Source: Candidatus Latescibacterota bacterium
GTDB lineage: Bacteria > Latescibacterota > UBA2968 > GCA-2709665
Direction of reading: 5' to 3'
Assembly: GCA_963667175.2 (NCBI GenBank)
Contig: CAXXXF010000006.1
Location: 416,001-480,000, forward strand
DNA: 64,000 nucleotides
Part shown: positions 1,028 through 40,764 of the stretch, piece by piece
Numbering within the stretch: position 1 is the first letter of the stretch
How the letters are laid out: each line of letters opens with the position of its first letter
Notes under the pieces: generated by a model
Seen by the model: the letters and a program-made list of their open reading frames with translations, nothing else
Databases searched by the model: none
Told to the model about the DNA's origin: nothing
Translations under genes and position numbers: made by a program

Positions 1028-2809
<1,782 letters not shown>

Positions 2810-27257: not shown

Positions 27258-28079
27258 TTACGAACCATACAGCGAATCCGCTGTTTTGCCCAGAATCCAG
27301 GCCTTGTCTTCGTCAGAAAGAAAATCCATCGCTTCTTCGATCACGCGGAAGCCGACGGCCTCGCCACGCTGAGGGTCTTCTGGAAAACCCGTACATCCCA
27401 GCATCCGGTGAGACCCGAACGCCTCGTAAACGGCTCTGACGTAGGGATGAACGTCTTCGTGCGGCCATGGCTTCGTGGATATCCCGTCAATCCTTGTGGC
27501 CTTCACGTAGAGATTGGGATATTTCGCGGCGTGCAGGAGGTGCTGAAAACTGCCATCCACGCCCTCCGCAAGAAAGGGCTCTCCCAGGTGATCCACGATC
27601 ACGTTCACCTCGGGGAATCGCCGCAATATCGGTTCCAGCAACGGAATCTGATGGCACCGGCCGAACCAGGTGAACGGAACGCCCAGACGTCGGGCCGTCT
27701 CCCATAGCGGTGTCTGATCATCGCGTGACAACCACGATGCGTCCTTATCCTTGACCGGATACAACCGCATCCCCTGTACCCCATGTTCGCGGTGCAGCCG
27801 CTCCATCTTATCAGCAGCGCCGGGTTTCAAGGGATCGATCAACGCCACGCCGTGCAGACGACCGGGAAATCGGCGCATGCAGTCACACATATAGCTGTTG
27901 TCATATCCGTGATACATGCACTGAATGAGTACGGTCCGGTCGATGGCGTTCAGGTCCATAAACCTGATGAGATCCTCGACAAGACCCGGATACACCGGCC
28001 TGTTTGTCGACATCTGGTCGTTGTGGATGAACGGTGGCGCCCCCATGGTCCACACGTGCACGTGAGAGTCGATTCGCAT
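27258..28079 (-). CDS. Amidohydrolase family protein (Amidohydro_2)
   Basis: IDSHVHVW, GYDNSY, GMRL, VDHLGEP, YPNLYVK, AFGSHR. Confidence 0.92.
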   Translation of the reverse strand: MRIDSHVHVWTMGAPPFIHNDQMSTNRPVYPGLVEDLIRFMDLNAIDRTVLIQCMYHGYDNSYMCDCMRRFPGRLHGVALIDPLKPGAADKMERLHREHGVQGMRLYPVKDKDASWLSRDDQTPLWETARRLGVPFTWFGRCHQIPLLEPILRRFPEVNVIVDHLGEPFLAEGVDGSFQHLLHAAKYPNLYVKATRIDGISTKPWPHEDVHPYVRAVYEAFGSHRMLGCTGFPEDPQRGEAVGFRVIEEAMDFLSDEDKAWILGKTADSLYGS

Positions 28080-28110
28080 CGTTTCCTCCTATCTGAAAAC
28101 AGGCTCAAGA

Positions 28111-28267
28111 AAGGCACGAGAAAACGAACAACGGAAACTACGAAATACGCGAAAAAAACGAAAAATCCGTGGCTGCAATCAACTGTGCCCCTGGCGGCCA
28201 GCATGCGGCCGCCTGCCTTGCCTGCGGCAGCAGGCAGGCGCGAATACCGCTGGGAATTTCAAAACAG
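28111..28267. repeat. Composite intergenic repeat (A-rich CGAAA module + AATCAACTG + GCCTGCC palindrome)
   Basis: Homologous to 40541-40690 and, at its 3' end, to 1028-1091. Confidence 0.8.
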
Positions 28268-28354
28268 TTGTCATGCCCCTTTGGGGCACCCATAATGATG
28301 AAAATGGTTGCGTCAACAGACTTGTGTGGTAGGTTGTTGGCCACCATAACCCTT

Positions 28355-28499
28355 GGCTGGTCGAAGGTCGTTTTGTAGATGGTGCTATGAGCCTGAAAAA
28401 CAGTTGGACCTGGGTATCTGGAGGTATCCATTATTGTCGCCCCCTGTAAAGGGAGAGCCCGCCAAGTAGACTCTTATCCCAGCAGATACCCGACCAGCC
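28355..28499 (+). ncRNA. Candidate IS110 bridge RNA
   Basis: Closing stem GGCTGGTC/GACCAGCC enclosing two hairpins (AGGTC/GACCT; GGGTATCTG/CAGATACCC); TTGTGT-17-CATAAC promoter-like motif just upstream. Confidence 0.55.
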
Positions 28500-28522
28500 G
28501 GATCAGACACAGGAGGCCTGCG

Positions 28523-29863
28523 ATGCATGTCATCTACCCTTGTTGCGCTGGTTTGGATGTCCACAAAAAGACGGTCGTTGCCTGCCGGATGAAGGCCGAA
28601 GGGTCAAAGCCGAGCCGGCGAGAGGTAAAGACCTTCTCCACAATGACCCGGCAGTTGCTGGCGTTGAGCGATTGGCTTTCTCAGTGGGGCTGCACCCACG
28701 TGGCGATGGAAAGCACCGGCGAGTATTGGAAGCCCATCTTCAACGTGCTGGAAGCCAACTTTGAAGTCTTGCTGGTCAATGCGCAGCACGTCAAACAGGT
28801 GCCAGGACGCAAGACCGATGTCCGGGATGCTGAGTGGCTGGCCGGGCTGCTGCAACACGGCTTGCTCAAAGCGAGCTTTATCCCCCCTGCCCTCCAGCGG
28901 GATTTGCGTGATCTGACGCGGTATCGCACCACATTGGTGCAGGAGCGCACCCGGGTGATCAATCGGGTGCAGAAGGCTTTGGAGGGCGCCAACATCAAGC
29001 TGTCCAGTGTGGCCAGCGATACGCTGGGCGTGTCGGGTCGGGCCATACTAAAAGGGCTCATCCAAGGCCAGGAAGATCCAGCAGCGTTAGCGGAGTTGGC
29101 CAAGGGCCGCTTGCGCAACAAGAAGGCCGACCTAGAGCAGGCGCTGACCGGCTTTTTCCGACCCCACCATCGCTTTTTGTTGAGCCACTTGCTGGTGCAT
29201 CTGGACTTTCTGGAAACACAACTTTCTCAGCTGTCCGACCAGATCGCTCAACACATTGAGGCGATGGGTGTGCCCCCAAAAGACCCGCAGCCTCCTTCGG
29301 GCGGTTCGCCCAAGCCTGCGCAGTCACCAACCGCCGCCTCGTCCAAGCCTGCGCAAGCTTCTCGGCTCCTTCCCAATCAGGCCATGGCCTTGTGGGATAC
29401 GATTCCTGGCGTCAACCAGACCGTGGCCGAGGTTATGGTGGCCGAAATGGGCGTGGATATGGGCCGCTTCCCCACCCACCGGCATCTGGCCTCCTGGGTC
29501 GGCTTAGCGCCTGGAAACCATGAAAGCGCAGGGAAACGTCAATCGGGGCGCACCACCAAAGGCAATCCTGCGTTGCGTCTTGCCCTCGTCCAGGCGGCCT
29601 GGGCGGCCTCGCGCACCAAAGACACTTATCTGTCCGCTCTCTATCGTCGGTTGGCCGCACGACGGGGCAAGAAACGCGCCTTGGTGGCAGTGGCTCATTC
29701 CATTCTCACAGCCGCCTATCATATGGCCTGTCACACACAACCCTATCAAGATCCGGGCAGCAACTATTTCGATCAGCGCAAGAAACACGACGTTGTCTCT
29801 CGGCTCTCCCATCGCCTGGAAAAGTTGGGGTACAACGTTGCGCTTACGCTACAAGCTGCTTAA
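28523..29863 (+). CDS. IS110-family transposase/recombinase
   Basis: AGLDVHK, MESTG.YW, KTD.RDA (DEDD RuvC fold); IPGV, GLAP...ESAG, KKRALVAVAH; AGGAGG RBS. Confidence 0.97.
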   Translation: MHVIYPCCAGLDVHKKTVVACRMKAEGSKPSRREVKTFSTMTRQLLALSDWLSQWGCTHVAMESTGEYWKPIFNVLEANFEVLLVNAQHVKQVPGRKTDVRDAEWLAGLLQHGLLKASFIPPALQRDLRDLTRYRTTLVQERTRVINRVQKALEGANIKLSSVASDTLGVSGRAILKGLIQGQEDPAALAELAKGRLRNKKADLEQALTGFFRPHHRFLLSHLLVHLDFLETQLSQLSDQIAQHIEAMGVPPKDPQPPSGGSPKPAQSPTAASSKPAQASRLLPNQAMALWDTIPGVNQTVAEVMVAEMGVDMGRFPTHRHLASWVGLAPGNHESAGKRQSGRTTKGNPALRLALVQAAWAASRTKDTYLSALYRRLAARRGKKRALVAVAHSILTAAYHMACHTQPYQDPGSNYFDQRKKHDVVSRLSHRLEKLGYNVALTLQAA

Positions 29864-30053
29864 ATAAAAGAAAAACAACAGGATTCTTCGAAATCTGAAA
29901 GGTTATTTTCTAAGTAGCTTCTTGGAGCGCGCTTTTGAGCGAAAGCTTACACAATGCATCCAGCGTACTGCCCTCCGGACGCATCCCCATCCGCCGGCAA
30001 GGGTCCGGTGTTGTCTTGAGGATCAGTTCACGTACGAAGAGAATAGTCTGGCA

Positions 30054-30923
30054 CTATCCTCGCCAATCCACGTCGATGCTCGTATAGCCATGGGTATATT
30101 TCTTCAAGTGTTCCGGCAGATTCTCCAGAAACCATCGTCCGGATTGCGGGATCTCCCACGGAACGTCGATTCTGTGCCCGCGGTCCCTGAACCCGATGGC
30201 GCACGACAGTCTCGTCTCCCCTGTCCGGTTGGGAAACGCGCCGTGGTACGTCCGGTGCGCAAATACGATCATATCGCCACCCTGCGTAAACAACGGCACA
30301 AGCCCGGGAATGTCAAACCCGGCGTAGGGTCGCTCTTCCCCGCCTTCGGGGTAGAACGACCGCCTGTCCGCCGTCATCCTGAACCCCTCCGGCCCTTCCC
30401 AACCGCCCACGTGGGAATCTTCGATGACACACAGTCCGCCATGTACCGGGCGGGACCCCGTCAGGTAGAACCACTTGCCCGACGGCCAGTGACCGCGGTT
30501 CAAAACATCGCCGGAATTCCTGATCTTCGTAGAAAACCCGCCCCAGTCCGTATGCCATGCCACGGGTTGGGACCCCGGCATCCTGATGATTGCGGCCGAC
30601 CGGTGTACGGTCAACTCGTCGGTACCGATCAGATGGCGATGAATGGCCATGAACGGTTCGTATTCCAGGAGCGACCATGCGCCGGGCCCGGATTCGATCC
30701 ACGCGTGGCGTGTACGACTCTGACCCGGCGCCAGCGCGCCCTCCGGATCCGTGCCGTCGTACACGGCCTGCTTCAGCCGCTCAACCCAGTCAGGAGGCAG
30801 CACGTCCTTGATGACCGCAAACCCGTGCGCCTCCAGACATTCGCTCATTGCGTCCAGATCCTCAATCCCGAACTCGTACTGATATTCAACGTCGGGTTTC
30901 TGCACGTGTGAATCGTCTTCCAT
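30054..30923 (-). CDS. PhyH-family Fe(II)/2OG dioxygenase, canonical HxD
   Basis: HGFAVIKDVL, WHTD, GGLCVIEDSH, GDMIVF, YHGA.PN, TRL. Confidence 0.88.
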   Translation of the reverse strand: MEDDSHVQKPDVEYQYEFGIEDLDAMSECLEAHGFAVIKDVLPPDWVERLKQAVYDGTDPEGALAPGQSRTRHAWIESGPGAWSLLEYEPFMAIHRHLIGTDELTVHRSAAIIRMPGSQPVAWHTDWGGFSTKIRNSGDVLNRGHWPSGKWFYLTGSRPVHGGLCVIEDSHVGGWEGPEGFRMTADRRSFYPEGGEERPYAGFDIPGLVPLFTQGGDMIVFAHRTYHGAFPNRTGETRLSCAIGFRDRGHRIDVPWEIPQSGRWFLENLPEHLKKYTHGYTSIDVDWRG

Positions 30924-40416: not shown

Positions 40417-40690
40417 GGATGGACAGGATGGACAGGATGGACAGGATGAAAACCGAAAAACACGACAAAACCAACATCGAAAACTACGAAATACACGAAA
40501 AAGCGCGAAAAAAGCACGAGAAAAACCGAAAAACACGTCAAAGGCACAAGAAAACGAACATCAGAAACTACGAAACACGCGAAAAAACGAAAAACGACGA
40601 GACAGAAAAAATAGTGATCCGTGGATGAAATCAACTGCGGCAAGAGGCCTGCATGCAGCGCATGCCACTGCGCGGGCAGGCGCAAAACCG
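40417..40690. repeat. Repeat tract: (GGATGGACA)x3, A-rich CACGAAA-type units and the composite repeat
   Basis: Tandem 9-mer at 40417-40448; strongly strand-biased A/C tract; homology to 28111-28250. Confidence 0.8.
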
Positions 40691-40764
40691 AAATGTTGCA
40701 CTTCAGCCTGGCAATGCAACGATTTTCATCATTACAGACGCTCCAAAGGGGCCTGACAACTGTC

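Follow-up and report, generated by a model that had tools for sequence, protein, structure and literature searches.

An IS110-group insertion sequence in a Latescibacterota genome and the predicted bridge-type RNA of its left end

What does an insertion sequence (IS) read when it lands in the tip of a repeat, the repeat itself or a few letters at its edge? This question is raised by a locus of a Candidatus Latescibacterota bacterium, where a 1650-bp IS110-group element with a single transposase gene interrupts a repeat whose uninterrupted counterpart lies elsewhere in the same stretch of DNA. That stretch, hereafter the window, comprises 64,000 nt (C6:416001-480000 in the 18-contig, 5.52-Mb genome; bare coordinates below are positions in the window, and others are given as contig and position). 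A preliminary description, made from the sequence alone, had taken the two repeat copies for filled and empty target alleles of an element aimed at the end of a genome-wide repeat family. Here, our analysis points to a partly different answer. The element is recently active. It very probably transposes through recombination at an AG dinucleotide that is guided by RNA and leaves no duplication, with a bridge-type RNA encoded in its 255-bp left end.

Ends, copies and empty allele of the element

The left junction reads CGCTGGGAATTTCAAAACAG/TTGTCATG (a slash marks the junction), with AG at 28266-28267, and the right junction reads TTTTCTAAGTAG/CTTC, with AG at 29916-29917. Since AG stands at both borders, the coordinates 28266-29915 are equally valid for the element. 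These are the only letters common to its two sides, and it has neither a target-site duplication nor terminal inverted repeats. A BLAST search of the genome with the 1650-base element, the check that the preliminary description had proposed, revealed other insertions with the same ends: the left junction is ..CAG/TTGTCATGCCCC in 7/7 IS copies and the right junction is TTTTCTAAGTAG/ in 9/9. The junction sequences and exact ends first read from the window are thereby confirmed, and the 2-nt AG core (CT on the other strand) without duplication holds for every copy.

Among these copies, three full-length ones are 100% identical (the window copy, C9:14836-16485 and C4:341604-343253). Two full copies (L004, L005) stand head to tail at C2:256751-260050 with one AG in common, an arrangement that may be genuine or may have arisen in assembly. 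It places in the chromosome the junction of right end, AG and left end that a circle would have. Two further copies, at C4:83523 and C14:379559, measure 1617 bp, one carries an internal deletion (C15:871916-873310), one is interrupted by a contig end (C3:1-893), and a 51-bp remnant of the right end remains at C6:511924-511974. The 1650- and 1617-bp forms are separated by a 33-bp indel, equal to 11 residues, in a Pro/Ala-rich linker of the transposase (SPKPAQ..SKPAQ). At C4:83523-85296 (L007, L011), the 1617-bp copy is followed by AG, after which IS bases 1494-1650 occur once more and again end in AG; this arrangement looks like a tandem pair whose second copy was mostly lost through a deletion ending at an internal ..GGGCAG/CAAC.

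Independent evidence came from public sequencing runs, for which Logan contigs from four runs were mapped to 27900-30300. One contig from run X1 (390 nt) reads 27936-28265 and continues with 29916-29975, and one from run X2 (1816 nt) reads 28221-28265 and continues with 29916-30299. In both, the joint from 28265 to 29916 skips exactly 1650 bases, and two letters fit either side. A true empty allele of the 28268-29917 locus exists, with left target, AG and right target intact, and the skip is independent proof of the ends, of the 2-nt core and of the absent duplication. X1 and X2 come from different studies, and the conclusion stands even if one of the runs is the source sample of the genome, as may be the case. 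Contigs from X6 and X9 do not span the insertion site and are uninformative either way. One X6 contig links 29917 to 28277 with 11 other letters in between; neither it nor the head-to-tail pair on C2 demonstrates a circle. In addition, contigs of X6 and X1 show a 33-base skip (29305-29339 or 29309-29343) that corresponds to the 1617-bp variant, so both length forms are present in these two runs. An empty allele had also been claimed within the window itself; the sequence at 1072-1095 does read uninterrupted as described (CGCTGGGAATATTAAGACAGCTTC), but it belongs to a paralogous repeat copy and is not an allele. The complete identity of three copies and the presence or absence of the element at this locus among public runs mark it as recently active.

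The proposed IS110 identity was upheld by several searches. The transposase matched PF01548 in its N-terminal domain (DEDD, RuvC-like; E 7.1e-34, residues 9-156), PF02371 in its C-terminal part (E 8.1e-24), NF033542, 'IS110 family RNA-guided transposase' (294.4 bits, cut-off 140), and the structure of the IS621 transposase (chain 8wt6, E 1.4e-13). Residues D12, E63, D99 and D102 fall in motifs aligned to the DEDD residues of IS621, and HES(335)AG aligns with its YESGS motif, placing S335 at the position of the catalytic Ser. The left non-coding end spans 255 bp, and the guides described below are located in it; the right one spans 54 bp. This long-left, short-right layout, with an RNA upstream of the transposase, is that of the IS110 group as opposed to the IS1111 group. 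On these matches, the element is assigned to the IS110 family (IS110 group). A PF01548 search of the genome returned seven genes, every one from this element, and among the 40 relatives searched the full IS is confined to the source genome.

The ends also occur without a transposase. Five elements of 163-204 bp, which resemble MITEs (miniature inverted-repeat transposable elements), open with the first ~46 left-end bases, close with ..TTATTTTC(C/T)AAGTAG and contain neither guide. They are best read as non-autonomous elements, presumably moved in trans. Their interior is a separate repeat with ~50 further partial copies in the genome. Within the left end that they share with the IS, a palindrome, GCCCC-TTT-GGGGC, lies at 28275-28287.

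Guides and fold of the left-end RNA

A scan of species-representative genomes yielded 37 related loci with at most 62% protein identity, mostly from Chloroflexota and cyanobacteria. The 300 bases upstream of the start codon were aligned for the 21 loci with a complete N-terminus. The fold was assessed on 20 elements (L051, a near twin of L031, and L037 were excluded), flanks and guides were compared in the 19 rows with a clear AG junction (L029 was excluded), and right ends were compared in the 15 rows in which that end could be placed.

These comparisons revealed two stretches that change together with the surroundings of each element. Columns 67-71 equal the element's own left flank, positions -7 to -3, in 18, 19, 19, 18 and 18 of the 19 rows. 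All four bases occur at each of these positions, and AG comes next. Columns 74 and 75 then equal left-end bases 1 and 2 in 18/19 rows each, and the agreement ends there, column 76 equaling base 3 in just 3/19. The second stretch matches the other end: positions -7 to -3 of an element's right end recur in its own columns 155, 156, 158 and 159 in 14, 15, 15 and 15 of 15 rows. In the window element, the candidate target guide is AAAACAG followed by a TT handshake, and the candidate donor guide is CCAAGTAG. The donor guide agrees with the IS right end at 7/8 positions (CTAAGTAG) and with those of two MITE-like copies at 8/8 (CCAAGTAG); the remaining three MITE-like copies are one base off (CTAAGTAG, CCAAATAG, CCGAGTAG) or two (TCAAGTAG).

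RNAalifold alone proposed 16 pairs; further helices were placed by eye and then tested on the alignment. In the resulting six-helix model of 35 pairs, 83.6% of cells are paired (75.7% in shuffles) and 23 pairs show double-sided changes (13.6 in shuffles). None of 500 shuffles attained the observed values, and sliding the 3' partners reduced pairing to 29-47%. A possible GGUGC/GCACC pairing, which would cross two further helices, is 94% paired, with almost no variation. Because the guides match each element's own flank and end and the fold shows covariation, the left end is predicted to encode a bridge RNA.

One relative, L034 (1734 bp, on a contig of a metagenome-assembled genome), has a target guide equal to its donor guide (CAGGGCAG), and the same sequence agreement holds between its left flank and its right end. 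This pattern would be expected of an element inserting beside itself, or of a contig whose assembly ran through the junction of a circle or tandem.

Target choice and the repeat tip

The genome holds 13 left junctions, seven from IS copies and six from small elements with the same left end. AAAACAG stands at eight of them, and the other five differ from it by one base (AATACAG twice, GAAACAG, AAAGCAG and AAGACAG), although AAAACAG accounts for only 729 of the 535,646 NNNNNAG sites genome-wide and 8,588 sites lie within one mismatch. The terminal 38-64 bases of the left end are also present in 15 other genomes among the 40 relatives searched. The 13 left-end junctions among the loci examined there read AAAACAG (7), AAGACAG (2), AAAGCAG (2), CAAGCAG (1) and ATAACAG (1), six of them thus with one or two mismatches to AAAACAG.

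On the right, the flanks are more variable. CTTC follows 3/9 right junctions of the IS, the others continuing with AAC (three), TGG, GTA or CTA (one each), and it follows 1/5 of the MITE-like elements and 4/5 of the right-end-only fragments. Since just 8/729 AAAACAG sites have CTTC next, CTTC is far commoner at junctions than chance would give. The right-end-only fragments themselves, which keep the right-end half of the small element (C6:206903, C15:209066, C2:199797, C6:582655 and C6:692510), have differing left cut points, and their continuation, CTTC in four and CTTT in one, contrasts with the variable right flanks of the full-length copies.

The repeat at the insertion site is of a hairpin type with seven copies in the genome. 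It forms the right half of a ~165-215-bp element with terminal inverted repeats, both tips of which end in ..ACAG/CTTC (C3:74393-74554 and C9:16486-16694), and the C9 copy of the IS occupies the left tip of one such element. The two copies in the window, 1028-1091 and 28204-28267, share 89% identity across 64 bp (E 3e-16). Tips were counted genome-wide by the mismatches to a 19-nt tip; at five mismatches, 25 matches were obtained against 16 in a reversed control, and only sites with at most four were used. Nine clear tips were found in this way, seven empty and two filled. Both filled tips lie inside the window, one holding the IS at 28267 and the other a left-end-type element at 40760, which has the other repeat type at its far end and lacks an AG-terminated right end.

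The proposal that the element targets the end of a genome-wide repeat family is thus right in that the tip is a landing site, and overstated in that the family amounts to seven hairpin-type copies and nine tips, two of them filled. The preliminary description had named differing ends or unrelated targets of other copies as findings that would tell against it: the ends proved identical, but for 5/7 IS left junctions the surrounding sequence bears no relation to the repeat. The target inference is only partly right. All 13 left junctions share AAAACAG, with at most one mismatch, and this 7-mer matches the guide inside the element.

Could the element nevertheless recognize the repeat itself, by its fold or by a longer sequence, the 7-mer being merely the part nearest the crossover? 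We consider this a doubtful alternative, though one with evidence in its favor. The tips are few, yet they hold 3/13 junctions in this genome and 6/13 in relatives. A GC hairpin stands ~20 nt upstream in the tips, and in ISPpu10 a target stem-loop is described as raising efficiency (bioRxiv 10.64898/2026.03.19.712850). Distant relatives, moreover, often have (A/T)TT(T/C)(C/G) at -12 to -8 of their left flanks, where the tip also has a T-rich run. Against recognition of the repeat, neither the 5/7 IS left junctions mentioned above nor 4/6 of those of MITE or left-end-type elements carry it, and 7/9 clear tips are empty. Among the hairpin-type copies, 5/7 are off the guide by one base (AAGACAG), and one tip with a perfect AAAACAG/CTTC, at C16:474722, is vacant. 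The repeat tip is a hot spot well beyond its share of matching sites, not the sole target, and its context, namely the T-rich run (TTTC/TTTT, 5 nt upstream), the downstream CTTC and the GC hairpin, may aid it.

Very improbable is a second alternative, in which the left repeat segment would be part of a longer mobile unit moved with the transposase gene and the similarity of 1072-1095 to 28248-28267 would reflect a carried end rather than a target: the flank at 28123-28244 is indeed a copy of the repeat that forms the MITE-like interior, and the tip resembles the right ends of related elements (ATTTT(C/A)-N5-AG), but this reading is contradicted by the other IS copies, whose left flanks are unrelated right up to CAG/, and by the empty allele in X1 and X2, which retains the repeat tip and loses the 1650 bases only.

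We therefore return to an element guided by its own RNA at a short site. In the proposed mechanism, AAAACAG plus UU in the first loop would pair with the flank that ends up beside the left end, the added UU matching the first two element bases, and the second loop would present CCAAGUAG, equal to the element's own right end plus AG. The transposase, with its DEDD residues and Ser, would then carry out strand exchange at AG, with the joined ends as one partner and the target as the other. The repeat tip would often be hit as a carrier of the 7-mer, probably aided by its context. On this account the RNA would be produced and bound by the transposase, and a circle would serve as donor.

Several results weigh against this mechanism or parts of it. 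Rfam, searched over 27800-30400 with E up to 1, matched no family, and when the left end was folded as a single sequence, the result did not surpass shuffles (z -0.92). In a column-by-column search, no column covaried with the right flank (n = 14), and past the 2-nt handshake no guide for the left-end start was found. The helix that the donor guide forms with its 3' neighbor in relatives has just 3/6 pairs in the window element. In 13/20 rows, CU closes the 5'-side segment in loop one, and the complementarity of this segment to AG plus the right flank is weak (2.36/6 against 1.60 in mismatched pairs, permutation p 0.005). In the window element this segment has no CU to pair with the core and scores 0/6, in keeping with the variable right flanks. 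A promoter-like TTGTCA (28268-28273), 17 nt and CATAAT (28291-28296) is a consensus match only, two such matches being found where shuffles give 1.8. Finally, the 7-mer alone does not predict occupancy, because most of the 729 AAAACAG sites are vacant, and so are eight AAAACAGCTTC sites.

Further observations concern the small elements and the repeats. The interior repeat (..cagccacggatttttcgtttttttcgcgtgtttcgtagtttctgatgtt..) is abundant, often as tandem units, in the window at 40470-40560 and in ~50 other places, and it is also found with its own conserved flanks (..ggttttcatcctgtccat). Three of the five small elements (C15:818834, C1:5675 and C16:134332) have a ribosome-binding site and ATG of the same orientation 25-35 nt downstream of their ends, and they retain a promoter-like TTGTCA-17-(C/T)ATAAT; judging from this arrangement, they may act as mobile promoters. 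In two relatives, G015 and G019, elements of ~310-620 bp (L056, L062, L071 and L078) carry the first 58-64 and the last 51-59 IS bases, and no full IS copy was found there. Near the unfilled repeat copy, a thiamine pyrophosphate (TPP) riboswitch aptamer (832-921, 72 bits), the only Rfam match at gathering level across the whole window, precedes a thiC-like gene starting at 1113; a half copy of the inverted-repeat element (985-1095) lies between this aptamer and the start codon, at the would-be expression platform.

Table 1. Features of the insertion locus and related elements (window positions unless a contig is given)
Feature	Position	Strand	Basis or remark
IS110-group insertion sequence, 1650 bp	28268..29917	+	Same-ended copies elsewhere in the genome; exact 1650-base skip in X1/X2 contigs
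Left target half, tip of terminal-inverted-repeat element	28248..28267	+	Terminates in guide-matched AAAACAG (28261-28267), final two bases being the AG core
Right target half CTTC	29918..29921	+	Sequence 3' of the right junction
Left-end terminal ~46 bp, common to IS and MITE-like elements	28268..28313	+	Sequence sharing with small elements
Predicted bridge-RNA-like structured region	28353..28501	+	Alignment of 20 elements, covariation-supported fold
Candidate target guide AAAACAG (28397-28403) and handshake TT (28404-28405)	28397..28405	+	Match to own left flank and left-end start
Candidate donor guide CCAAGTAG	28462..28469	+	Equals right end plus AG
Transposase gene, 446 aa	28523..29863	+	Pfam, NCBI model and IS621 structure matches
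Right non-coding end	29864..29917	+	Terminal GTTATTTTCTAAGTAG (29902-29917) also on MITE-like elements
Interior-repeat copy (profile positions 74-182)	28123..28244	-	Adjoins the insertion site
Paralogous unfilled repeat copy	1028..1095	+	Tip 1072-1091, then CTTC; 7-mer AAGACAG, one mismatch to guide
Second family element in the window	40554..40759	-	Left-end-type terminus 40716-40759 inserted at repeat tip GGGGGATTTTAAGACAG/TTGTCAGG
MITE-like elements	C3:37041-37230, C16:134332-134525, C15:818834-819011, C1:5675-5878, C10:53998-54160		Same kind of site as the IS

Comparison with known bridge-RNA and repeat-targeting elements

Work on how bridge recombinases function, and on their engineering, draws on natural IS110 elements for which many landing sites have been mapped. 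The present element adds 13 left junctions in its own genome and 13 in relatives, a real filled and empty polymorphism, and a non-autonomous partner family that must move in trans. With one target half strictly read and the other loose, it also bears on the published question of half-match off-targets, and we infer that it is a natural half-site reader in the half-match preprint's sense (bioRxiv 10.64898/2026.08.31.748434). The current picture of the IS110 family is unchanged, and elements of this kind are already known.

The comparative pattern found here is the one that was described for bridge RNAs (Durrant 2024, PMC11208160). As IS621 is described, its right end lies 5' of the CT core on the sense strand of the RNA, and a 2-nt handshake follows the 3'-side guide (PMC11208160; Hiraizumi 2024, PMC11208158). 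By that account, our element resembles IS621 in its two protein domains, in an RNA upstream of the transposase, in guide loops ~65-70 nt apart, in guides that contain the core, and in the 2-nt handshake. It differs in that the sense-strand core is AG rather than CT, AG being found in 19/19 aligned elements with a defined junction. It differs also in that the long guide for the left flank, with its handshake, sits on the 3' side of the loop, the position of the right target guide in IS621, where it directly precedes the closing stem at columns 77-81. The promoter-like -35 box falls on the first six left-end bases here, whereas in IS621 it is described in the right end. The element thus has neither a CT sense core nor a 5'-side guide reading the left flank, and the published IS621 layout agrees with that of this clade solely when the other strand of the site is read.

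These differences allow a speculative extension, which as a whole we regard as rather unlikely. The clade may run the IS621 mechanism mirror-imaged with respect to the element body, a 3'-side long guide plus handshake reading the flank beside the RNA-bearing end, with AG as the sense core. The donor guides of relatives would be masked by a covarying hairpin with their 3' neighbor, and the guide for the other flank would have decayed here, leaving a natural half-site recombinase. As the sole source of IS110 transposase in its genome, this recombinase would also drive a MITE family that is present across the genus without the full element.

With respect to its landing sites, the element recalls ISPpu10, an IS110 element whose natural sites are described as copies of a single intergenic repeat, which has a GC-rich stem-loop 5' of its guide match (bioRxiv 10.64898/2026.03.19.712850). 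According to that source, all ISPpu10 insertions lie in the repeat, whereas most insertions here lie outside it.

By the features described in the text consulted, the closest known system is ISPpu9 of Pseudomonas putida KT2440 with its partner MITEPpu9. ISPpu9 is described as having an AG crossover at both ends, a 43-bp left box with a GCCC-N4-GGGC palindrome, and a right box of 16 bp. Its targets are repeat sequences, and its registered MITE-like partner, MITEPpu9, shares its boxes (PMC12288879). All of these are found in the present element too, so that its AG core and its MITE partner are not new. Compared by published description, the two systems agree in a left box of ~43-46 bp with a GCCC..GGGC-type palindrome, a right box of ~16 bp, repeat targets and a small non-autonomous partner. 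Tandem copies are reported for the small partner of ISPpu9, and here a tandem pair is formed by the IS. A native promoter is described inside the left end of ISPpu9 rather than at the junction; here the corresponding site is a consensus match only. They differ in that the ISPpu9 partner is described with a small RNA gene, while the small element here apparently contains an unrelated genomic repeat, and in the host, which here, judging by the runs containing the sequence, is a sponge-associated bacterium.

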